Assembly: GCA_027340875.1 (NCBI GenBank)
Contig: DAIENX010000020.1
Span: forward strand, 1 to 39,962
DNA: 39,962 bases
Direction of reading: 5' to 3'
Origin: Elusimicrobiota bacterium
GTDB taxonomy: Bacteria > Elusimicrobiota > Elusimicrobia > Elusimicrobiales > UBA9959
Shown: one piece after another, positions 14,183 to 25,430 of the stretch
Numbering within the stretch: the first letter of the stretch is position 1
How the letters are laid out: every line of letters starts with the position of its first letter
Made by a program: the position numbers and the translations under genes
The notes under the pieces: generated by a model
What the model was told of the DNA's origin: nothing
Seen by the model: the letters and a program-made list of their open reading frames with translations, nothing else
Databases searched by the model: none

Positions 14183-14269
14183 GACTAAATTATAGCAATG
14201 TGGCCATGGACTGGCCATACGTCATACCCCCGGCGCGCCAATTATGGTATATTGCGGGGGAGGGTTAAT

Positions 14270-17200
14270 ATGGACGGGGAACAGGATAAATACAGGACCT
14301 TTTTCGGCAACGTACCGGCCATGGTGTGCTTCGTGGATTTCGACGGGCGCATCCTGGAGCTCAACCGCGCCTGGGAGACCTCCACCGGCTTCAGCCGCGA
14401 GGAGCTGGCCGGCCAGCCGTGGGCCGGCTTCATACACCCCGAGGATATCGAGGCGGCCTGGGCCGGGCAGAAGAAGGCGATGAGCGGAGAGCCGGCCACG
14501 GCGCAACTGCGCATCCGCTGCAAGGGCGGTTCCTACAAGTGGTTCCTCATCTCCGGCTACGCCGACAAGGACCGCAGCGTCCTTTACACCGCCGCTTCCG
14601 ATATTTCCGCCCTTAAAGAGACCGAGACCTCCCTGCGCGCCAGCGAGCATCAGCTACGCCGCATCATAGACAAGGCCCCCATCTCGATGGCCATCGTCGG
14701 GATGGACGAAAAGATAGAGTACATAAACCGCAGGGCCGAGGAGACCTTCGGCTACCCCAGTTCCGAGATCCCGACGATGAAGGACTGGTGGGAGAAAGCC
14801 TACCCTGACGAGGCCTACCGCAAGGAGGTCCTAGCGGACTGGATGGGCCGGGTGATGGACGGCATAAAGCGCAACGGAGAGATAGCCGGCAACCAGTACC
14901 GCGTCACCTGCAGGGACCGTTCGGTAAAGACCTGCTTCATCTACGGCGTGATCGCGGCGGGCAAGGTCTTCGTGATGTTCGAGGACATCTCCGAGCGGGT
15001 CAAGACCGGCGAGATGCTCCAGACCAGCGAGAAGAGGCTGAAGAGCATACTTGAAGAGGCGCCGGTGGCCATAGCCGTAAGCTCAAAGGGAGGGAAGCTG
15101 GAGATGCTGAACAGGAAGTTCACGCAGATCTTCGGCTATACCCTGGAGGATATCCCGGACCTGGAGACTATGGGGCGAGAGGTCTATCCGGACGAGAGAT
15201 ACCGCCAGGAAGTGATCTCTTACTGGGCCGAGGTCCAGAGCGCCTCCCACGATCCCGGGGAGGAACTGCATCCCAGGGAATTCCGGGTGCGCTGCAAGGA
15301 CGGGACATACCGGACGGTCATCAGCTCTACCGTAGTGACCGATGACGATAAGATCGTGACCATAAACGAGGACGTCACGGAGCAGGTTGCCGCGGAGCAG
15401 GTCCTGCGGGAAAGCGAGACGAATCTCCGCAGCGTGCTGGAGCAGGCCCCTATCGGCATCATGCTGCGCACTTTGGACGGAGGTATCGAATTCCTCAACC
15501 GCAAATTTACGGAGCAATTCGGCTACACGGTGGAAGACATCCCCACGGCCGGAAAATGGCAGGAGTGCGCATTGCCGGACGAGACTTATCGCCGGGAAAT
15601 GATGGTGCCTTACCTCCGCAGGCTGGGGGAGGTGCGCGAGACCGGCGGGGAACTGCCGCCGATGCAGCTGCGCATCACCTGCAAGGACGGCACGGTGAAG
15701 CAGGTCAGCCTGACGGGCATGATCACGCGGGACAAGAAGGTCCTCACTCTCCTGGAGGACATCTCCGAGCGGGCCAGGGCGCAGGAGGAACTGCGCTTCA
15801 GCGAGAGCACCCTGAGGAGCGTCATAGAACAGGCTCCTATCTCGATAGCCGTCTATAGTCTGGAAGGCAAGCTGGACTTCCTGAACCGCAAGTTCACGCA
15901 CACCTTCGGCTACCTTCCGGAGGAGATCCCGACCGCCGGGGACTGGATGCAAAAGGCCTATCCGGACAAGGCGTACCGCGAACAACTGAACGCCAAATGG
16001 GCCGCTCTTCTTGAAAAGGCCGTAAGGACAAACGGCGAGATAGAGGGCGGGGAATATCGCGTCGTGGCCAAGGACGGCACTGACCGCACGGTCTTCATCC
16101 ACGGCGTGGTCACCGCCGGGAAGAAGGTGGTCTGCCTGCTGGACGACGTCACTTCGCGGGTTCGCACGGAACGCGCCCTGCGCGAGAGCGAAAGCACGCT
16201 CCGGCGCATACTCGACCAGGCGCCGATAGCCATCGCGGTCCACACCCTGGAAGGCAACATAGAGTTCACGAACCGGAAATTCACCGAGGCCTACGGCTAC
16301 CAGCTGGAGGATATCCCGACCCTGGAGACGTGGATGAGGCGGGCCTATCCCGACCCCCAGTACCGGGAAGGCCTGCTGGACATGTGGAAGCAGTGGATGG
16401 ACAACTCACTGCGGACGGGGCAGGCCATGCCCGGCACCGAGGTGCGCGTCCGCTGCCGCGACGGCCGGACCAAGTACGTCTTCGTCACGGGCGTGGTCAC
16501 TCCGGACCGCAAGGTGGTCTCCATACTGGATGACATAACCGGCCGGGTCGAGTCGGAGCGTGCCCTGCGCGAGAGGGAATCCCTTTACCGCGCGTTGGTG
16601 GAGACCACCCGTACCGGCTATGTGGTGATCGACGGGCAGGGCCGCGTGGTGGACGCCAACAGGGAATACGTGCGGCTGGCGGGTTTCACCGACCTCAAGC
16701 AGATCATGGGGCGCAGCGTGCTGGACTGGACCGCGCCGCACGAGAAGGCCCGCAACGCCGCCGCCGTGGCGAAATGCGCCAGGGACGGGCACATACACAA
16801 TTTCGAGGTCGAGTACGTGAACCCGGAAGGCGAGACGACTCCGATAGAGATAAACGCCACCGTGGTCAGCCGCGACGGCGTGAACAATATCCTCACGCTG
16901 TGCCGCGATATCTCACAGCGCCGTCGCCGCCTCGAGGAACTCAGGGCTTTCAACGAAGAGCTTGAGAAACGCGTCGCCGAGCGCACGGCCGAGCTCAAGA
17001 AGGCCAACATCGGGCTCAGCATGGAGATCGCCCAGCGCATGGACGCGGAGAGGAACACGCAGAAGCTCCAGCAGGAGCTGCAGCGCGCCCAGAGAATGGA
17101 AGCGCTGGGCCAGCTGGCCGGAGGCATCGCCCACGACTTCAACAATATCCTGGTGGCCATCAGCGGCTACGCCGAGTTCCTGATGAGCACGCTGCCCGGG

Positions 17201-17827
17201 GACTCTCCGGGCAGGGCGGACCTCTCCGAGATCATGCACGAGACCGAGCGCGGCGCGGCCCTGACGCGCCAGCTGTCCACGATAGGCCGCAAGGAACCCG
17301 AGAACCCGCGGGACGTGGATCTGAGCCATGACATCGAGGACGCCTGCCGCATGCTCAAGCGCCTGATAGGCGCGGATATACGCCTGGAGACCAGGCTGGT
17401 CCCCGGTTTGCCGCGGGTCTGCGCCGGTGTCGGCCAGATATCCCAGCTGGTCATGAACCTGGTCCTGAACGCGCGCGACGCGATGCCGGACGGCGGGCGC
17501 ATAATCGTTACCACGGGCCTGCAGGACTTCACCGGCGGCGACGGCATGCCCATCACCCCGGCGCCGGGGAAGTACGTATTCATGGAAGTCCAGGACGACG
17601 GGCAGGGTATGACGCCGGAGACGGCCAGGCAGGCCTTCGAGCCCTTCTTCACCACGAAGGAGTCCGGAAAAGGCACCGGCCTGGGGCTCTCCGTGGTCTA
17701 TTCCATAGTCAAGCAGGCTGGAGGAGGGATAGCGTTGACCAGCTCCCCGGGCTCCGGCACCGCCATCAGGATCCTGCTGCCGCCCTGCGCAGCCGACCGG
17801 ACAGCCCCGTCCCGCCGAAAGCCTTAA
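14270..17827 (+). CDS. Cytoplasmic multi-PAS (7 PAS) sensor histidine kinase without a receiver
   Basis: Seven PAS/PAC-like segments; GQLAGGIAHDFNN, NLVLNARDAM, DDGQGM, FEPFFTTK, GTGLGL. GGGAGG SD before the ATG at 14270. Confidence 0.93.
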   Translation: MDGEQDKYRTFFGNVPAMVCFVDFDGRILELNRAWETSTGFSREELAGQPWAGFIHPEDIEAAWAGQKKAMSGEPATAQLRIRCKGGSYKWFLISGYADKDRSVLYTAASDISALKETETSLRASEHQLRRIIDKAPISMAIVGMDEKIEYINRRAEETFGYPSSEIPTMKDWWEKAYPDEAYRKEVLADWMGRVMDGIKRNGEIAGNQYRVTCRDRSVKTCFIYGVIAAGKVFVMFEDISERVKTGEMLQTSEKRLKSILEEAPVAIAVSSKGGKLEMLNRKFTQIFGYTLEDIPDLETMGREVYPDERYRQEVISYWAEVQSASHDPGEELHPREFRVRCKDGTYRTVISSTVVTDDDKIVTINEDVTEQVAAEQVLRESETNLRSVLEQAPIGIMLRTLDGGIEFLNRKFTEQFGYTVEDIPTAGKWQECALPDETYRREMMVPYLRRLGEVRETGGELPPMQLRITCKDGTVKQVSLTGMITRDKKVLTLLEDISERARAQEELRFSESTLRSVIEQAPISIAVYSLEGKLDFLNRKFTHTFGYLPEEIPTAGDWMQKAYPDKAYREQLNAKWAALLEKAVRTNGEIEGGEYRVVAKDGTDRTVFIHGVVTAGKKVVCLLDDVTSRVRTERALRESESTLRRILDQAPIAIAVHTLEGNIEFTNRKFTEAYGYQLEDIPTLETWMRRAYPDPQYREGLLDMWKQWMDNSLRTGQAMPGTEVRVRCRDGRTKYVFVTGVVTPDRKVVSILDDITGRVESERALRERESLYRALVETTRTGYVVIDGQGRVVDANREYVRLAGFTDLKQIMGRSVLDWTAPHEKARNAAAVAKCARDGHIHNFEVEYVNPEGETTPIEINATVVSRDGVNNILTLCRDISQRRRRLEELRAFNEELEKRVAERTAELKKANIGLSMEIAQRMDAERNTQKLQQELQRAQRMEALGQLAGGIAHDFNNILVAISGYAEFLMSTLPGDSPGRADLSEIMHETERGAALTRQLSTIGRKEPENPRDVDLSHDIEDACRMLKRLIGADIRLETRLVPGLPRVCAGVGQISQLVMNLVLNARDAMPDGGRIIVTTGLQDFTGGDGMPITPAPGKYVFMEVQDDGQGMTPETARQAFEPFFTTKESGKGTGLGLSVVYSIVKQAGGGIALTSSPGSGTAIRILLPPCAADRTAPSRRKP

Positions 17828-20345
17828 GCACCTCGAACCATGCCAGGCTCACGGCCCCGCCGCCCAGCGCGACGAGCAGGTCGTGACCGTGCATGAACCC
17901 GAAGTGGAACAGACCGCGCAGGAAAGGCACGTAGAGCGTGAGGCCCATGACGGCCAGCGCTCCGGCGCAGACCCACCACAGCGTCAGGTGAGCCTCTTTC
18001 AGCGTCCTGGCGAAGTTGTCCTTCCAGGACAGATTGGTGATTATGAGCATCAGGTTGGCGAAGACCAGGGCCGTGAACGAGAGCGCGCGGGCCTCCTCCT
18101 CGCCTTTACCCAGCCGCAGCGAGAGCAGGAAGATCCCGAAGACCACGGCCAATACGCTGAAGCCCTGAAGCAGGCTGAGCATCGCCATCCCTTTGGAGAA
18201 CAGCGGCTCGTCGGGGGAGCGGGGCGGCCGCGACATGATGTCGTGCTCTTCGCGCCCGGCCTCGAACACGACGGAGCAGGCCGGGTCTATTATCAGCTCC
18301 AGGAAGGCGATGTGCGCCGGCAGCAGCACCACCGGCATGCCGAAGAGGACGGGCAGCAGCGACATGCCGGCTATCGGGACGTGCACGGAGAGAATGTAGG
18401 CGATGGCCTTCTTCAGGTTATCGTAGATCCTGCGGCCCAGGCGTATCGCGTGCACTATGCTGGAGAAATCGTCGTCCATCAGCACTATCGCGGCGGCCTC
18501 GCGGGCCACGTCCGTGCCGCGCCCGCCCATCGCCACCCCGATATGCGCGGATTTGAGGGCCGGCGCGTCGTTGACGCCGTCCCCGGTCATCGCCACTATC
18601 TCGCCGTTGGCCTTCAGCGCGTCCACGATGGCGAGCTTCTGCTCCGGCACCACCCTGGCGAAAACGGATATTCCTTTTATCCTCTCACGCAGCTCCGCCG
18701 GGGCCATCCCGGCCAGCTCCGGCCCGGTCAGGACTTTCTCCGGATCGCGCAGCCCGATCTCCCGGGCTATGTAAGAGGCCGTGCCCGGATAATCCCCGGT
18801 GATCATCACCACCCTGATGCCGGCCGCTGCGGCTTCCGCCACGGACGCCGGAACCCCGTCGCGTACGGGGTCCATGAACGCGCACAACCCTCCGAACTCG
18901 AACTCGAAATCATGCTGGGCCTGCGGCAGGCCCGTCTTGTCAGACCACGCGCGCGCCACGGCCAGCACCCGCAGTCCCCTCGAGGACAGCCCGGCCACCG
19001 CCTTCATCACCCCGGCGGCCGCTTCCGGCCCGAGATGGCAGAGGTCTATTATCGCCTCCGGCGCGCCCTTGGCGGCCACCACGTAGCGCATATGGTCGGG
19101 AGACTCCCACGCGTGCGCCAGCGAGAGCAGCTCTTTGGACAGCGGATATTCGCGCACCACCTTCCAGTCGCGGTGCAGGTGCTCGGTCCCCGTAAGACAG
19201 CCGGCGCCGAAGCGCTTCAGCTCCTTCTCTATCGGGTCGAACGGGTCCTCCTGGCTGGCCAGTATGGCGTATTCGGCCAGGGCGTGGAACTCCTCGGGCA
19301 GCTCGTTGGCGCCGTCGCTGACCCTATGGAAGCCGCCGTCGGTCCAGAGCTCCCGCAGGCGCATGGAGTTCAGCGTCAGCGTCCCCGTCTTGTCGGTGCA
19401 CAGCACCGTCGCCGCGCCCATCGTCTCTATGGCCTGCATACGGCGCGTCAGCACGTTCTTGCGGGAGATGCGCCAGGCGCCAATGGTGAGGAAGATCACC
19501 AGCACCACCGGGAACTCCTCCGGCAGCATAGCCATGCCCAGCGTCAGTCCGGAGAGGAAGCCCTTCAGCCAGGTCCCGCGCGAAAGCCCCATGACCAGCA
19601 CCACCGCCGCGCAGAGGACGGCGCCGGTCACCGCGAAGATGCGGACTATGCGCCCGGTCTCCCGGTTCAGCGGCGTCTCTTCCTGCGCTATGGATTCCAG
19701 CGCTCGGCCTATGCGGCCGATCTCCGAGCGGGGGCCGGTGGCGGCCGCCCTCACCAGAGCCCTGCCCTGCACCACGAGCGACCCGGAGAAGACGTAGGGG
19801 AGATCGTCGCCGCCGGGGCGGGGTACGGGCGCGGCGCCGTCCCACGGGGCTTTACGGACCGGCACGCTCTCGCCGGTAAGGAGCGATTCGTCGGCGCTGA
19901 AGTTCACGCAGGCCAGCACGTGAGCGTCCGCGGGCACGCGGTCGCCCTCGGTCAGGTAGATCAGATCGTCCCTGACCACCTCCCGGCCCGGCACGCGCAG
20001 CTGGCGGCCGCCGCGGATGACCAGAGCCCGGGGGCTGGCCAGGCCGCGCAGGGCGTCCAGGGCGTTCTCGGTCTTGCGCTCCTGGTAAAAGGTGATGCCG
20101 ATCACCACCAGCACGAAGGTCAGCAGCATCATCGCGTCCTTGACCCCGCCGAGAACGAGGTAGATGCCGCCGGCGGCCAGCAGCAGCAGGAGCATGGGCT
20201 CCTTCAGCACGCCTAAAGCGAGGGAGAGGATGGACCGCTTCTTCTGGGAGGGGAGCTCGTTCAGGCCTTCCTCGGAGCGCCGGGCCAGCACTTCGGCGTC
20301 GGTCAGCCCCTTGGCGGAAGCCAGCAGTTCGTTGAGGTCGGGCAT
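17766..20345 (-). CDS. Cation-transporting P-type ATPase (type II-like)
   Basis: LTGES, PEEFP, CTDKTGTLT, KGAPE, MITGD, TGDGVNDAPAL; about 10 TM segments. Start at 20345 (GGAAGG upstream) or 20357. Confidence 0.95.
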   Translation of the reverse strand: MPDLNELLASAKGLTDAEVLARRSEEGLNELPSQKKRSILSLALGVLKEPMLLLLLAAGGIYLVLGGVKDAMMLLTFVLVVIGITFYQERKTENALDALRGLASPRALVIRGGRQLRVPGREVVRDDLIYLTEGDRVPADAHVLACVNFSADESLLTGESVPVRKAPWDGAAPVPRPGGDDLPYVFSGSLVVQGRALVRAAATGPRSEIGRIGRALESIAQEETPLNRETGRIVRIFAVTGAVLCAAVVLVMGLSRGTWLKGFLSGLTLGMAMLPEEFPVVLVIFLTIGAWRISRKNVLTRRMQAIETMGAATVLCTDKTGTLTLNSMRLRELWTDGGFHRVSDGANELPEEFHALAEYAILASQEDPFDPIEKELKRFGAGCLTGTEHLHRDWKVVREYPLSKELLSLAHAWESPDHMRYVVAAKGAPEAIIDLCHLGPEAAAGVMKAVAGLSSRGLRVLAVARAWSDKTGLPQAQHDFEFEFGGLCAFMDPVRDGVPASVAEAAAAGIRVVMITGDYPGTASYIAREIGLRDPEKVLTGPELAGMAPAELRERIKGISVFARVVPEQKLAIVDALKANGEIVAMTGDGVNDAPALKSAHIGVAMGGRGTDVAREAAAIVLMDDDFSSIVHAIRLGRRIYDNLKKAIAYILSVHVPIAGMSLLPVLFGMPVVLLPAHIAFLELIIDPACSVVFEAGREEHDIMSRPPRSPDEPLFSKGMAMLSLLQGFSVLAVVFGIFLLSLRLGKGEEEARALSFTALVFANLMLIITNLSWKDNFARTLKEAHLTLWWVCAGALAVMGLTLYVPFLRGLFHFGFMHGHDLLVALGGGAVSLAWFEVLKAFGGTGLSGRLRRAAAGS

Positions 20346-20370
20346 CGTTCCTTCCATAGATTAGCCCGCG

Positions 20371-20451
20371 AAAAAGCCGCGGGGGGTATAGTCCCGCGGC
20401 TTTCCCGCTGCCTTCCGGCCCGGCCGCGCCCCAAGGGGGCCGCCTGATCTG
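20371..20451 (-). ncRNA. Candidate riboswitch/attenuator in the ATPase leader (Na+ / DUF1646-motif-like)
   Basis: Leader AGAUCAGGCGGCCCCCUUGGGGCGCGGCCGGGCCGGAAGGCAGCGG followed by terminator AAAGCCGCGGG...CCCGCGGCUUUUU. CGCGGC in the upstream part can sequester the terminator 5' arm. The class assignment is from recalled consensus only. Confidence 0.55.
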
Positions 20452-20457
20452 TGCGAT

Positions 20458-20486
20458 ATTCTAAGAAAAGCCGCGCGTCTTTGCAA
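20458..20486 (-). promoter_or_regulatory. Sigma70 promoter of the P-type ATPase leader
   Basis: TTGCAA (20481-20486), 17-bp spacer, TAGAAT (20458-20463). Confidence 0.7.
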
Positions 20487-20496
20487 CCGCCGGCGT

Positions 20497-20541
20497 TTGC
20501 CCCGGGATAGTTAGAAAACATATAATATGGTTCCTAACTAT
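20497..20541 (+). promoter_or_regulatory. marR operon promoter overlapped by a palindromic operator
   Basis: TTGCCC-18-TATAAT. Inverted repeat ATAGTTAGAAAACATAT-A-ATATGGTTCCTAACTAT (20507-20541, 15/17 match) spans the -10. Confidence 0.7.
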
Positions 20542-20543
20542 TT

Positions 20544-21077
20544 ATGCGCCAACCAGAAGACCGTAGAAAACTGCTGCTGCGGAACATGCCCAGAGGCGCC
20601 CGCCTGCGGGGACTGGCCGCGTTATACCCGGAGACCGACCCCGGGGCCATGGAGGTCTACGGCGCGCTGCTGGAGATCTCCTCCGACATACTCGCGGCCA
20701 GCAACTCCGCCCTGGCCCGCAGCGGCATGTCCCAGGCACGCTTCCGCCTGATGCTGCACCTGCGCAGGGCCGGCTCCGACGGCCTGCACCCGATGGACCT
20801 CGCCAGCGCCCTGGGAGTGGAGCGGGCCACCGTGACCGGCCTGGTGGACGGGATAGAGAAGGACGGACTGGCCAGGCGCCTGCCGTGCCGCGGGGACAGG
20901 CGTTCCATACTCGTGGCCCTTACGCCGAAGGGCGCGCGCCTGATGGACGAACTGGCCCCCGAGCGCCTCCGCCGGGTCGCGCTGCTGATGTCCGGCCTGA
21001 CCCCCGCGGAAAAGAAGGCGCTGGTCAGGCTGCTGGACAAGGTGGGGGAAAAGCTCCACGCCTTCGCTACGATATGA
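20544..21077 (+). CDS. MarR-family transcriptional regulator
   Basis: wHTH pattern DLASALGVERATVTGLVDGIEKDG...DRRSILVALTPKG. Confidence 0.92.
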   Translation: MRQPEDRRKLLLRNMPRGARLRGLAALYPETDPGAMEVYGALLEISSDILAASNSALARSGMSQARFRLMLHLRRAGSDGLHPMDLASALGVERATVTGLVDGIEKDGLARRLPCRGDRRSILVALTPKGARLMDELAPERLRRVALLMSGLTPAEKKALVRLLDKVGEKLHAFATI

Positions 21078-22372
21078 GAATACTTCTTCTGCTGCTGCTC
21101 ACGCTGCTGCCCGGCTTCGCCGCCGCCGAGGACCTTAGCCTCGGACGCGCCGTCAACCTGGCCCTGGACAACAACCTCCATATGAAGCTGGCCCGCGCCG
21201 ACGGGGAGACCGCCCGCGCGGAGGCCCTCTCCCGGGCCTCCAGGCTGCTGCCCCAGGCCTACTTCTCAGCCTCGCAGAGCCGGACTTTCAGGGAGAACCT
21301 CAGCTCCATAGGCTTCGGCGCTCCCGGCGGCGGCCCCAACCTGATAGGGCCGTTCGACACTTTCGACGCCAGGCTCGCCCTGGTCCAGTCGCTGCTCGAC
21401 CTCCCCTCGGCCAACTCCGCCCGTTCCGGAGCCGAGGCGCGCCGGGCCGCCGACCTCAAGGTACAGCTGGCCTCGGAGCAGGTCTCCGCGGCCGCCGCCC
21501 TCGCCTATCTGGACGTGCTGCGCTCCTCCGCGGCCCTGAATTCCGCCTCCGCGGGCTTCGAGCTGGCCGGCAGCCTCCGCTCCCTTGCCGAGAACAAGCA
21601 TGACGCCGGCACCGCCACGGGTCTCGACGTCCTGCGCGCCAGGACCCGCGAGGCGGAGGAGAAGCTCCGCGTCAGCAGGGTCTCCACGGCTCTCGACGAC
21701 GCCTGGCTGAGGCTCAAGCGCCTGCTGGGCCTGCCTTTCGGCAGGGACCTGCGCCTCACCGAGGACCTGGCCTACACCTCTTATGAGACCCCTGAAGCAG
21801 GAGCGGCCGTGAAAGAAGCCCTTTCGGGGCGCCTGGAGATACAGATCGCGGCCGCGGCGCTTTCCGCTTCCTCCTACGCCCTGAAGGCCGCCAGGGGAGC
21901 CAGGCTGCCGGCCCTGGCCCTCTCCGGCTCGGCGGCCATGAGCGGCAACAAGCCCGACGGCAACGCCAGGCTGGTCGGCGACATGGGCCTTTCGCTGAAG
22001 ATGCCGTTGTACGCCGGCGGCCGGGTGTCGGCCGGAGTGGACGCCGCGCTCTCCGCCCGTGAACGGGCGGAAAGCCTGTACGCCGACGCTTCCGCCATGG
22101 CGGAGCAGGAGACCCTTTCGGCCCTGAGCCGCCTGTCGGCGGCCGACGAGGAGGTGGCCACAGCTTCGATGACGGTGACGATGGCCTCCCAGGAGCTGGA
22201 GATGGCCCGCAACCGCTTCGCCGCCGGGGCGGGGGACAACATAGAGCTGGTAGAGGCGCAGACCTCCCTTTCGCGCGCCAGGGACGCCCTGGTGGACGCG
22301 CTGTCCCGCGGCAAGGAGGCCAACATCCGCCTTACGCTGGCCCTGGGCCGCATGAAGGACCTTAAGTTCTGA
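21074..22372 (+). CDS. TolC-family outer-membrane efflux protein
   Basis: Signal peptide MRILLLLLL; two OEP repeats (LLPQAYFSAS; RLPALALSGS...LKMPLYAGG); ATGA overlap with marR; C-terminal F. Confidence 0.9.
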   Translation: MRILLLLLLTLLPGFAAAEDLSLGRAVNLALDNNLHMKLARADGETARAEALSRASRLLPQAYFSASQSRTFRENLSSIGFGAPGGGPNLIGPFDTFDARLALVQSLLDLPSANSARSGAEARRAADLKVQLASEQVSAAAALAYLDVLRSSAALNSASAGFELAGSLRSLAENKHDAGTATGLDVLRARTREAEEKLRVSRVSTALDDAWLRLKRLLGLPFGRDLRLTEDLAYTSYETPEAGAAVKEALSGRLEIQIAAAALSASSYALKAARGARLPALALSGSAAMSGNKPDGNARLVGDMGLSLKMPLYAGGRVSAGVDAALSARERAESLYADASAMAEQETLSALSRLSAADEEVATASMTVTMASQELEMARNRFAAGAGDNIELVEAQTSLSRARDALVDALSRGKEANIRLTLALGRMKDLKF

Positions 22373-22399
22373 AGCCGAGCCGTTCTTCCTAGGAGAGAT

Positions 22400-23278
22400 A
22401 TGACCGACAATACCACTGCCGAGCCGAAGCATCACCGCAGGAAGCCGCACTGGGGCGTGCTGGTCCTCATAGCCGCCGCGGCCGCCATAGCGGGCGGCTA
22501 CTACTGGGTCCATTCAGCGGCGCACGAGACCACCGACGACGCCACGATAGAGTCCCACGTGCTGCCGGTCAGCTCCAAGGTCTCCGGCCAGATCGTCGAG
22601 GTAGCGGTGGACGACAACCAGCACGTCGAGAAGGGCGCGCTGCTGGCCCGCATAGACCCGCGCGACTACCAGGTGAAGCTGGACCAGGCCCGGGCCGAGC
22701 TCGCCGCGGCCGATGCCGAGGCCGCCCGCGCCGAAGCCGACGCCGAGCGCGCCAGGCAGCTTTTCGGGAAGGACAACGTTTCCCGCCAGGTCTACGACAA
22801 GGCGCTGGCGGACTCCGGAGTGATGAAGGCCCGGGCCGAGCTCGCCGGGAAGAAGCTGGCCGCGGCCGAGCTGGACCTCTCGTACACCCGCATCACCGCG
22901 CCCGAGTCCGGCAAGGTGACCAAGAAGAACGCCGAGCAGCGCGCCTTCGTCCAGGTGGGCCAGCCGCTGATGGCCATAGTCACCGACGAGGCCTGGGTGG
23001 TCGCCAATTTCAAGGAGACCCAGCTTACCCGCATCCGCCCCGGGCAGGAGGTCACGGTCGAAGTGGACACCTATCCCGGCCGGAAGCTCAAGGCCCACGT
23101 GGACAGCATCCAGTCCGGCACCGGCTCGCGCTTCAGCCTGCTGCCGGCCGAGAACGCCACCGGCAACTTCGTAAAGGTGGTGCAGCGGGTCCCGGTCAAG
23201 ATCGTCTTCGACGAGCCCCTTGACGGCCTGATGCTGGTGCCCGGCATGTCCGTGGTGCCTACCGTGCATCTCAAATAA
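22400..23278 (+). CDS. emrA: HlyD/EmrA-family membrane fusion protein
   Basis: N-terminal TM, ETTDDA, ANFKETQL, FSLLPAENATGNFVKVVQRVPVKI; AGGAG SD. Confidence 0.93.
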   Translation: MTDNTTAEPKHHRRKPHWGVLVLIAAAAAIAGGYYWVHSAAHETTDDATIESHVLPVSSKVSGQIVEVAVDDNQHVEKGALLARIDPRDYQVKLDQARAELAAADAEAARAEADAERARQLFGKDNVSRQVYDKALADSGVMKARAELAGKKLAAAELDLSYTRITAPESGKVTKKNAEQRAFVQVGQPLMAIVTDEAWVVANFKETQLTRIRPGQEVTVEVDTYPGRKLKAHVDSIQSGTGSRFSLLPAENATGNFVKVVQRVPVKIVFDEPLDGLMLVPGMSVVPTVHLK

Positions 23279-24846
23279 TGGCCGCCGAGGCACCTGCGCA
23301 GCGCGGCTACTGGAAGCCCGTCCACTCCCCGTGGCTGGTCAGCTTCTCCGTCATGCTGGGCATGTTCATGCAGGTGCTCGACACCTCCGTCGCCAACGTC
23401 TCCCTTCCGCACATAGCCGGCGGGCTTTCCGCCTCCACTCACGAGGTCTCCTGGGTGCTGACCAGCTACATCGTGGCCAGCGCGATAGTCCTGGCCGCCT
23501 CCGGCTGGCTCAGCGCGCTGATAGGCCGCAAACGCTACCTGGCCATCTCCGTCGGACTCTTCACGGTATCCTCCGCGCTCTGCGGCATGGCGCAGACCCT
23601 GCCGCAGCTGGTCTTCGCCCGCATCCTGCAGGGCATAGGCGGCGGCGGCCTGCAGCCGCTTTCGCAGGCCGTCATGCTCGAGAGCTTCCCGCAGGAGAAG
23701 CGCACGCAGGCCATGGCGGCCTACGGCCTGGGCATAGTCGTGGCGCCGATCATCGGACCTATACTCGGCGGCTGGATAACCGACAACTTCTCCTGGCGCT
23801 GGATCTTCTACATAAACCTGCCGGTGGGCATACTGGGACTGGCCTTGCAGCATATGTTCCTGGAGGACCCGCCCTACCTGAAGCGCGCTAATATCGCGAG
23901 CATAGACCGCTGGGGCCTGTTCTTCATGATGATAGGTCTCGGGGCCTTCCAGCTGGTGATGGACAAGGGTCAGGAGGTGGACTGGTTCGCGGACGCCTGG
24001 ATACGCTTCGGGACCTTCGCGTTCTCCGTCTTCCTGCCGCTGTTCGCGTGGTGGGAGGTGCGCCGGCAGCAGCCGCTGCTGAACCTGCGGCTGCTGAAGA
24101 GCCGCAACCTGGCGCTGGGCTCGTCGCTCTCCGCCGTGCTCGGCGCGGTGCTGATGGGCTCCACGGCCATCCTGCCGATCTTCATGCAGACGCTGCTGGG
24201 CTACCCGGCCTTCCAGAGCGGCATGGCCATGATGCCGCGCGGCATCGGCTCGCTGATCTCGATGATGGTGATCAGCCGGATGGTGCGGGGTTTCGGCAAC
24301 CGGGTGATGATAGTCGTCGGCTTCATCGGCATAGCCGTGACGCTGCTGATCTTCTCGAGGTACAACCTCGACATCTCCCGCTACAACGTGATGGCGCCGC
24401 TGTTCTTCAACGGCCTGATGATGGGCTTCATCTTCGTGCCGCTGACCACGCTGTCGATGGCCAACCTGAAGCAGGCCGACATACAGCAGGCCAGCAGCAT
24501 CTTCAGCCTGCTGCGCAACATCGGCGCCAGCTTCGGCATCTCGATCATGTTCACGATGCAGGCCAGGATGGCCCAGGTGCACCAGACCGCGCTGGCCTCC
24601 CACGTGACCGACTACGGCCAGCAGTTCCAGTACTGGTCGGCGCAGATAGGCCGCCTGTTCCACTCCGGCGCGGCCGCCTACGGCTTGGCCTACAAGAACA
24701 TCATGATGCAGGCCGTCCTGCTGTCCTTCCTGGACTGCTTCAGGTGGCTCTCCTACACCGCGCTGATCACCGCGCCGTTCGTGCTGCTGTTCCACGGCAG
24801 CCGCCACATAAAGACCCAGGCCGAGATCGAGGCCGTCTGGGAATAA
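23278..24846 (+). CDS. emrB: DHA2-family MFS efflux permease (EmrB/QacA)
   Basis: MQVLDTSVANVSLPHI, SWVLTSY, ARILQGIGGG, WRWIFYINLPVG; about 14 TM segments. Confidence 0.94.
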   Translation: MAAEAPAQRGYWKPVHSPWLVSFSVMLGMFMQVLDTSVANVSLPHIAGGLSASTHEVSWVLTSYIVASAIVLAASGWLSALIGRKRYLAISVGLFTVSSALCGMAQTLPQLVFARILQGIGGGGLQPLSQAVMLESFPQEKRTQAMAAYGLGIVVAPIIGPILGGWITDNFSWRWIFYINLPVGILGLALQHMFLEDPPYLKRANIASIDRWGLFFMMIGLGAFQLVMDKGQEVDWFADAWIRFGTFAFSVFLPLFAWWEVRRQQPLLNLRLLKSRNLALGSSLSAVLGAVLMGSTAILPIFMQTLLGYPAFQSGMAMMPRGIGSLISMMVISRMVRGFGNRVMIVVGFIGIAVTLLIFSRYNLDISRYNVMAPLFFNGLMMGFIFVPLTTLSMANLKQADIQQASSIFSLLRNIGASFGISIMFTMQARMAQVHQTALASHVTDYGQQFQYWSAQIGRLFHSGAAAYGLAYKNIMMQAVLLSFLDCFRWLSYTALITAPFVLLFHGSRHIKTQAEIEAVWE

Positions 24847-24888: not shown

Positions 24889-25410
24889 CTATTTCCTGTT
24901 ATAGAAGCCCAGTATAAGGCCCAGAGCCACCGACCACAGCGCCGCCAGCCCTATGCGGTAGTGCACCGGGAGCATGAAGGTCACGGTGTGGGCCGGCACC
25001 CAGAACCAGAGCAGCGAAAGGAAGGCCTTGTCCAGGTTCGCCCAGTTCGGCGCGCCGTCGATGAAGTTGTCTATCAGCCGGTGCGAGATCACGAGGAAAG
25101 GCCCGAACTGCAGGTTCATCGCGAGGGATATGGCAAAGGCGGTCCCGAACGCGCCCAGCTCCGGCAGCAAGCCGTGCGCGGTCAGGGCGGGGATGAACGC
25201 CACGAAGCCGGTGAAGGCGTACTTGATGGCCACGGCCAGCAGCGCCCAGCCGGCCATGCGCAGCAGCGTGCCGCGCGCGCCGAAGGGGGCGAAGACGCGG
25301 CGGGCGGCCAGCCATCTGGAAGCGGTCTCTCCGAGTGTTCCCAGCACGGCGAACTGCGTCATGGCCGTAGTTATCGGGTGCGTTTTTACCAGTTCCACGT
25401 ACCATTCCAT
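24889..25410 (-). CDS. Small integral membrane protein, Mpv17/PMP22-like
   Basis: 4-5 TM segments; HPITT near the N-terminus; FWVPAHTVTFMLPVHYRI...WS C-terminal pattern. Start 25410 lies 6 nt after TG-G-TAACAT. Confidence 0.7.
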   Translation of the reverse strand: MEWYVELVKTHPITTAMTQFAVLGTLGETASRWLAARRVFAPFGARGTLLRMAGWALLAVAIKYAFTGFVAFIPALTAHGLLPELGAFGTAFAISLAMNLQFGPFLVISHRLIDNFIDGAPNWANLDKAFLSLLWFWVPAHTVTFMLPVHYRIGLAALWSVALGLILGFYNRK

Positions 25411-25430
25411 GCGCATATGTTACCATTTCC

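Follow-up and report, generated by a model that had tools for sequence, protein, structure and literature searches.

The window analyzed here is a 39,962-nt stretch of contig DAIENX010000020.1 from an Elusimicrobiota bacterium (assembly GCA_027340875.1), in which a leader of 107 nt, extending from about 20452 to 20346, precedes the gene for an 859-aa P-type ATPase (P0001; 17766–20345); all leader and ATPase coordinates are on the minus strand, and leader numbering descends. We propose that this leader is a compact NiCo riboswitch whose four-way junction binds Fe2+, Co2+ or Ni2+, and that it turns the ATPase on by blocking a terminator, a reading to which we give a probability of about 0.85. 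That it is a compact member of the known NiCo (czcD) class, the discovery of which was reportedly published by Furukawa et al. in 2015, we regard as close to certain. The initial annotation of this DNA, which had put the leader at about 105 nt, had proposed a Na+ (DUF1646) ON switch; the idea of a metal-ion riboswitch, predicted to be of ON type and with a terminator ahead of a cation P-type ATPase, was upheld, while the class proved wrong.

Compared in E-value mode with 4227 Rfam families, a 261-nt region containing the leader gave NiCo/czcD (RF02683) as its best match (35.8 bits, E 1e-6), spanning the full length of the model (positions 1–96) and covering 20387–20461 of the window. Only three matches were obtained at E ≤ 10, the other two having E-values of 3.4 and 4.2, and because Rfam output shows only the best member of each clan, RF02683 also outscored its clan mates. 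The Na+ model RF03071 (DUF1646) gave no match at E ≤ 10, either in this region or among 128 scored candidates from the genome, and yybP-ykoY (Mn2+) and small SRP RNA, which the initial annotation had also named for comparison, were rejected since neither was among the three matches. At gathering thresholds the whole window returned no Rfam match at all, and the element was visible in E-value mode only: the RF02683 cut-off is 37 bits, and the riboswitch is missed here because its score falls 1.2 bits under it. The genome held a single good NiCo site, none of 14 control genomes matched, and the NiCo core pattern was found a single time in the window but in none of 100 shuffles. Our own lineage-specific covariance model, built from 16 leaders, recovered Elusimicrobiota NiCo leaders at 45–79 bits and gave the window leader 73.8 bits, by construction, as this leader is in the training set. 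Run over 151 genomes of the taxonomic class, with 32 candidates scored per genome, it detected NiCo only in G000 and G128 (G and L numbers are our labels for genomes and loci). Folding energy was unexceptional, the whole leader being ordinary for its GC content (z −1.6 versus shuffles) and the aptamer part alone having a z of about +0.5 to +0.9, so that the evidence beyond chance is the family match and the conservation rather than stability.

The aptamer (20387–20452, about 65 nt), delimited by the RF02683 match and our own model, has a four-way junction of helices P1 to P4. P1 (20388–20452) pairs ACAG (20452–20449) with CUAU (20391–20388), with one C·A mismatch, and includes C20446-G20393, based on the Rfam alignment and the genus leaders; its third pair is U-A in 10 of the 14 parsed genus leaders. 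P2 (20422–20444), supported by genus comparison, consists of GGC/GCC, an internal loop and GCCCC-CUU-GGGGC, and its second outer pair is C-G in six and U-A in eight of the same 14 leaders. The CCCC-CUU-GGGG hairpin of the initial annotation lies at 20439–20429, reaches 5 bp once G20440-C20428 is added, and forms the outer part of this P2. Its GNRA-capped GCC-GGAA-GGC is likewise present, as P3 (20410–20419), in which conservation is limited to the two junction-side pairs, but a GNRA loop occurs in only two of the 14 parsed genus leaders. Finally, P4 (20396–20408) is GCGG-GAAAG-CCGC, and its 3′ strand doubles as the 5′ arm of the terminator, making it the switching strand. This helix is invariant in Elusimicrobiota leaders and reads GUAG/CUAC, GAAG/CUUC or AUAG/CUAU in other phyla.

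The predicted metal-binding junction (20393–20448) comprises A20448, G20421, G20420, G20419, G20395, G20394 and G20393, mapped onto 4RUM, the crystal structure of a NiCo/czcD RNA from an Erysipelotrichaceae bacterium, with C20446, A20445, C20410 and A20409 as junction partners mapped by position. According to a simulation preprint (bioRxiv 10.1101/2025.08.02.668262), the ion-binding nucleotides of 4RUM are A9, G40, G41, G42, G82 and G83, its helix-terminal pairs are G83-C11, G40·A12, G42-C55 and G81·A56, and its switching strand is C74–A84, from the P4 3′ strand to the end of P1; a review names G45, G46, G47, G87 and G88 as ligands in crystal numbering (PMC7689651). Under our mapping, which would follow from the Rfam alignment and an offset of +5 between the two published numberings, all nucleotides named as metal ligands have their positional counterparts in the window leader, and the terminal C-G and G·A pairs of the NiCo junction are also present. 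In MAFFT alignments the GGG of J2/3, the GGG of J4/1 and the A before the inner pair of P1 were invariant or nearly so; the invariant columns comprised the junction and its flanking pairs, and loops ranged from 2 to about 30 nt. The leader further resembles the class in its junction sequences (GA-N-CA-GGC, GCC-GG-GC, GC-A-GC and GC-GGG-AC), in a switching strand that overlaps an intrinsic terminator, in its predicted ON logic and in having sister copies ahead of CDF exporters. It differs in being shorter (about 65 nt versus a 96-position model), with short P2 and P3 and a weak P1, in its Elusimicrobiota-type host, whereas the cited papers treat mainly Firmicutes, and in its gene, a PEEFP/His P2-like ATPase instead of a CDF, a P1B4 or an annotated MgtA protein.

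An intrinsic terminator (20371–20404) is formed by GAAAGCCGCGGG / CCCGCGGCUUUU, with a 9-nt loop and a U5 tract, and sequesters the P4 3′ strand together with G20395–20393. Its stem (20404–20393 / 20383–20372) has an energy of −21.4 kcal/mol, which none of 200 shuffles equalled (z −5.04), and the five U's at 20375–20371 lie 25 nt 5′ of the ATG at 20345, just where the initial annotation had placed a terminator. A simple terminator scan overlooked the hairpin because its loop limit was 8 nt. Hairpin and U tract occur likewise in 12 of 14 relatives' leaders. Beyond the U tract, CGCGGG could pair with CCCGCG of the terminator 3′ arm once polymerase has read through (20365–20383; −11 kcal/mol), and this hairpin was in the minimum-free-energy fold of 8 of 13 terminator-bearing leaders.

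P2 to P4 form in the predicted ensemble, with a P4 pairing probability of 0.92–0.97 in transcripts of 59–71 nt, and in transcripts from 77 nt the terminator prevails (predicted probability 0.99). Secondary-structure energies were −19.3 kcal/mol for the aptamer, −30.3 for the aptamer plus the CCCGCG/CGCGGG hairpin and −40.5 for the terminator fold. Because the bare aptamer is much the less stable of these folds compared with the terminator, OFF would be the default state and the choice is likely kinetic, being made during transcription; moreover, since the terminator 5′ arm holds the P4 3′ strand and G20395–20393, the metal-bound aptamer and the terminator would be mutually exclusive, in line with what is described for the class (PMC7689651). 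The ON switch very probably sets P4, the closing G's and P1 against the terminator, a prediction made from sequence. The antiterminator of the initial annotation was a different one, CGCGGC (20428–20423) with GCCGCG (20400–20395). The two segments are indeed complementary, but no compensatory change was found between them, their fourth pair is broken in 4 of 16 leaders and their sixth in 12 of 16, and their predicted pairing probability in the 59–71-nt transcripts is 0.02 (at most 0.1), far from that of P4.

In the mechanism that we propose, transcription would begin near 20452, and P2, P3 and P4 would fold on emergence from the polymerase. Metal bound by the junction G's (20421–20419 and 20395–20393) and A20448 would then allow the weak P1 to close, and closed P1 would hold GCCGCGGGAC (20400–20391), so that the terminator would be blocked and the polymerase would pass the U5 tract; afterwards, the released terminator 3′ arm would pair with the downstream CGCGGG, in a hairpin that would lock the ON fold. 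With metal absent, the 3′ arm CCCGCGGC would invade P4, the terminator would form and the transcript would stop near 20371. The review cited above describes the same mechanism for the class, namely termination without metal and read-through with it (PMC7689651). By analogy with the riboswitches of PMC9389577, Fe2+ is most likely the physiological ligand: that report (Xu and Cotruvo 2022) gives Fe2+, Co2+ and Ni2+ a Kd of about 1 µM each and favors Fe2+ as the ion sensed in cells, and a further source calls the ion selectivity of czcD riboswitches unsettled (PMC11672702). The pump, again by analogy, would likely be induced by metal excess, serving either for export or to move a cation in compensation.

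The sigma70-type promoter of the initial annotation, TTGCAA-17-TAGAAT, was recovered, with its −35 hexamer at 20481–20486, its −10 hexamer at 20458–20463 and agreement with the consensus at 9 of 12 positions; the position of the −35 hexamer is kept in relatives. Two promoter-like sites were found in 19500–21500, versus 0.1 expected from shuffles, and among 26 leader loci examined, 24 have a −35/−10 pair 5′ of the aptamer, the remaining two being unparsed by our script. Judging by promoter spacing, transcription would start near A20452, the first base of P1. At the other end, a Shine-Dalgarno-like GGAAGGA and the start codon ATG (20345–20343) occupy 20343–20355; an open reading frame finder places the start of the ATPase at the ATG of 20357, and ortholog starts correspond to 20345.

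An orthologous ATPase is encoded by 17 of 43 genomes of the same genus, the window's included, with relatives at 74–92% identity. The leader lies directly 5′ of the gene in 14 of the 17 (again with the window's own); in G039 it precedes a bestrophin-like gene that is followed by the co-oriented ATPase, and in G021 and G018 it was not found in the 3.8 and 6.2 kb 5′ of the ATPase. Conservation of the leader across orthologous ATPases, on which the initial annotation had made its proposal depend, therefore extends to 14 of 16 same-genus relatives. Half of these 14 leaders exceed the 37-bit RF02683 cut-off (42.2, 41.1, 39.9, 39.0, 38.5, 38.3 and 37.5 bits). In G020, the closest relative, the leader has changes in P1 and in the P2 loop but retains three P1 pairs and the complete set of core bases, which suggests selection. 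The same leader also stands ahead of a CDF exporter (PF01545+PF16916), the gene type from which the czcD class takes its name, in four genomes that share the family or order (G278, G343, G128 and G353), and these leaders score under the RF02683 cut-off. A loose DNA pattern run over 401 Elusimicrobiota genomes matched 55 of them, mostly by chance in GC-rich DNA, and we kept only full-core matches, that is, those of the window's own genome, five genus genomes and the four CDF-associated ones; a match in G120 was dropped, having 18 bits and lying inside a coding sequence.

In a MAFFT alignment of 16 leaders, from which G010, G027 and G031 were excluded because they have long insertions or no longer have P3, the share of paired cells is 89.8%, versus 29–42% with slid partners, and five pairs have two-sided changes. 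Two genus leaders depart from the others. That of G031 (L018:4063–4158) is a degenerate NiCo leader in which P3 is collapsed and the terminator gone, with the promoter retained. That of G017 (L027:1404–1503) has no U tract, and its P4 CCGC could pair with a GCGG that overlaps the ribosome site; it is perhaps a translational-control variant, which would imply that, inside a single genus, control has shifted from transcription to translation.

Beyond the phylum, our own model was run over 80 ATPase loci and five other sources, 648 kb in all. It gave 10 matches at E < 0.001, namely the window, six Elusimicrobiota loci, L084 and L096 from Omnitrophota and L047 from Spirochaetes, all on the sense strand and 5′ of the ATPase. 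An unfiltered run added L086 (Atribacterota), and the core pattern added L072 and L085 (Omnitrophota), the leader of the latter reaching the ATPase through a DedA gene. NiCo leaders are thus present at 6 of 72 non-Elusimicrobiota ATPase loci, seven of which hold less than 300 nt 5′ of the ATPase; most members of the ATPase subfamily had no detectable NiCo leader in the loci scanned. The L096 leader scores 34.2 bits on RF02683. A narrow pattern applied to 301 genomes from the phylum to which G441 belongs yielded seven matches versus nine control matches, with two full leaders among them (G441 and G457), both of which precede the ATPase. A metagenome pattern scan was uninformative: of 80 loci among the matches listed, only one gave a score with our model, and it was truncated by a contig end. 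In the leaders of other phyla P2 is minimal, and P4 and P1 are compensated. Across phyla, in P4 a C-G pair becomes U-A or A-U in 6 of 24 and a G-C pair becomes A-U in 6 of 24, and in P2a a C-G pair becomes U-A or U-G in 5 of 24.

In a FastTree reconstruction of 88 proteins (six short ones having been dropped), the NiCo-bearing pumps were placed in three well-supported groups. The Elusimicrobiota pump leaders are closer to the CDF leaders of their own phylum than to Omnitrophota pump leaders, which suggests that pumps recruited NiCo leaders separately, although a single origin with many losses may also account for the distribution. Two of the Omnitrophota loci have further features. L084 contains an nhaA-I (Li+) riboswitch (1863–1912; 54.2 bits versus a cut-off of 37) about 480 nt 5′ of its NiCo leader, and the gene just 5′ of that riboswitch is presumably ClC-like, to go by a motif. 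In L085 (1920–6212), the NiCo leader, the DedA/VTT gene, the PEEFP ATPase and a gene of the GDT1 Mn2+/Ca2+ antiporter family form an operon-like run.

Several observations weigh against the reading of the leader as a working NiCo riboswitch. The window leader stays 1.2 bits short of the curated RF02683 cut-off, its U tract is only five long, and P1, with its C·A mismatch, is predicted to pair with a probability no higher than 0.14 when metal is absent. Shuffle controls of the alignment were modest (percentage paired 8/500, covariation score 17/500, pairs with two-sided changes 44/500 and another measure 24/500), because the core pairs are invariant and the sequences are related to one another; stronger pair counts stem from a model-fitted alignment that includes three chance matches. 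The cross-phylum parse requires the junction bases and so cannot prove that the junction is conserved. Among the genus orthologs, moreover, 2 of 17 are without the leader, G031 has lost P3 and the terminator, and G017 is without a U tract.

The mismatched P1, together with a gap of 21 kcal/mol in favor of the terminator and the degenerate leaders of G031 and G017, would suit a decaying NiCo copy, nearly fixed as mostly terminated or mostly leaky through its weak P1 and short U tract. We consider this improbable: junction bases, promoter, terminator and spacing are all intact, G020 varies in P1 and the P2 loop while keeping three P1 pairs and the core, and relatives that pass the cut-off likewise have only two to four contiguous P1 pairs. 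It is similarly unlikely that the NiCo fold has changed its specificity to suit a P2-type pump and now senses another ion (Mn2+, Zn2+, or Ca2+/Mg2+). The regulated gene is indeed closest to Ca2+/Mn2+ pumps (LMCA1, SPCA1, SERCA), a GDT1 gene comes right after the ATPase in L085, and czcD sensors are described as weakly responsive to Mn2+/Zn2+ in some assays (PMC7689651); however, the junction nucleotides named as ligands are all unchanged, the CDF exporters of sister genomes carry the same leader type, and isothermal titration calorimetry of three native czcD RNAs is reported to have given no Mn2+ response (PMC9389577).

A Na+-I (DUF1646, RF03071) riboswitch with the CGCGGC antiterminator is hardly credible. 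It would account for the ON-type layout, the overlap of aptamer and terminator and the cation transporter 3′ of the leader, all of which are described for Na+ riboswitches (PMC9337991), and the 6-bp CGCGGC/GCCGCG complementarity does exist. The DUF1646 motif, however, is described there as having two stems, whereas the leader has a four-way junction and matches it in neither sequence nor structure, as the searches with RF03071 had indicated; the CGCGGC pairing fares as set out above, and the minimal-P2 leaders of other phyla have no CGCGGC segment altogether.

The protein under the predicted control of the leader is a P2-like P-type ATPase of an uncharacterised subfamily, based on profile scores, alignments and an AF2 model, with PEEFP in transmembrane helix 4 (TM4; E276, E277), DKTGT (D318), H655 in TM5, and E683, D687 and C690 in TM6. 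Of the equivalog and subfamily models, only the general HAD-IC one had a cut-off that the protein did not fall short of. Three identities were rejected on this basis: MgtA (P3B; 288 versus a cut-off of 611 on TIGR01524), P1B heavy-metal ATPase (222 versus 346 on TIGR01525, and at most 222 on P1B models) and P2A Ca2+-ATPase (431 versus 798 on TIGR01522, with only the E309 and D800 equivalents retained). In G000 (L160:596–1516, G000:C97), a TerC-family gene lies directly 5′ of the genome's ordinary P2A-type ATPase, and that stretch gave no Rfam match at cut-off.

The best PDB sequence matches were LMCA1 (6ZHF), SPCA1 and SERCA1a (E 1e-118 to 1e-96), with which the pump shares domain layout, DKTGT, TGES and a membrane part of the ten-helix type. 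In SERCA, Ca2+ is bound by E309, N768, E771, N796, T799 and D800. D687 corresponds to SERCA D800 and E276 to the PEG/PEA glutamate, but the pump reads PEEFP in place of the PEGL/PEAL of the three P2A pumps, and a gap-free alignment over SERCA1 739–831 gave the replacements N768→H655, E771→I658, N796→E683, T799→I686 and P803→C690; these equivalences would hold insofar as the sequence alignment is correct. The alignment-based AF2 model had a pLDDT of 79, and a single-sequence fold a pLDDT of 38. H655, E276, E277 and C690 are invariant in 71 of 71 aligned members, E683 is kept in 69 and D687 in 70; the 13 paralogous P2A pumps that we examined do not have the PEEFP/His site residues and retain PEALP, N and N..TD instead. 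By general coordination chemistry, a site of one histidine and three to four carboxylates would be suitable for a first-row transition metal.

The named records nearest to the pump come from Elusimicrobiota (73–79% protein identity), and the subfamily extends across many bacterial phyla and methanogenic archaea under generic annotation only; plasmid homologs have generic names only, and the ESM Atlas held only generic Ca2+/cation ATPase clusters. Ten uncharacterised bacterial P-type ATPase families are mentioned in earlier accounts (PMC5615198, PMC3924187). Searches for the subfamily motifs with P-type ATPase, or for czcD riboswitch with COG0474, found no paper, though the 2015 NiCo gene list may include such ATPases. 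P-type ATPases under czcD control are already known from PMC9389577, namely Listeria LMO3448 (P1B4) and Clostridium cellulolyticum Ccel_1038 (annotated as MgtA-like); the pump described here differs from them in passing neither MgtA nor P1B models.

Outside Elusimicrobiota, pump neighbors (86 of 126 candidate open reading frames scanned) showed no consistent association with metal genes: GDT1, VIT1 and hemerythrin were each found once and MarR four times, which lends little support to transition-metal pumping. In Bacteroidota and Smithella records (L052, L055, L058 and L059) the pump follows the MarR gene, in a gammaproteobacterial record a VIT1 gene lies directly 5′ of it, and in a Thermoleophilia record a hemerythrin gene lies 3′ (L099:1777–2874 and L120:5702–6961, respectively).

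It is possible, though doubtful, that the PEEFP/His P2-like subfamily pumps a transition metal, most likely Fe2+ (or Mn2+, Co2+ or Ni2+), through a histidine-plus-carboxylate site on the SERCA site-II scaffold; NiCo riboswitches precede it in at least four phyla, and this repeated pairing may mean that the pumps export a transition metal. Alternatively, the pump might transport Ca2+, Mg2+ or a monovalent ion, its induction serving to counter metal stress, a role that has been proposed for Ccel_1038 (PMC9389577).

Other features flank the locus. A 35-bp imperfect palindrome (20507–20541; 17-nt arms, 88%), similar sequence to which is present in G020, G017 and G022, lies over the −10 of a divergent promoter, TTGCCC-18-TATAAT (20497–20526), that drives a MarR gene heading tolC-emrA-emrB-like genes; it is likely the MarR operator. 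This marR-tolC-emrAB block (20544–24846) separates the NiCo promoter from a gene for a 175-aa membrane protein with no Pfam or NCBIfam match (24889–25416), and it looks inserted here, because in G004, G027, G029 and G039 the membrane gene is directly 5′ of the NiCo promoter. On the other side, a gene for a 1209-aa histidine kinase with seven PAS stretches (14198–17827) is convergent with the ATPase, their 3′ ends overlapping by about 60 nt. Elsewhere, near a small open reading frame in G353, we noted a group I intron (L159:535–781; 86 bits).

The leader extends the NiCo class to Elusimicrobiota; in the literature on Elusimicrobia and riboswitches, judged by titles or the beginnings of abstracts, no paper on NiCo was found. 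It also adds a data point on which ion czcD riboswitches sense in cells, a matter raised in PMC11672702. The class of a riboswitch is among the better clues to what a transporter carries, and NiCo control, combined with an invariant His/Glu/Glu/Asp membrane site, makes Fe2+ export by P2-type pumps directly testable. Were transition-metal pumping by this subfamily true, it would represent an iron exporter built on the chassis of a calcium pump rather than on that of a P1B ATPase.

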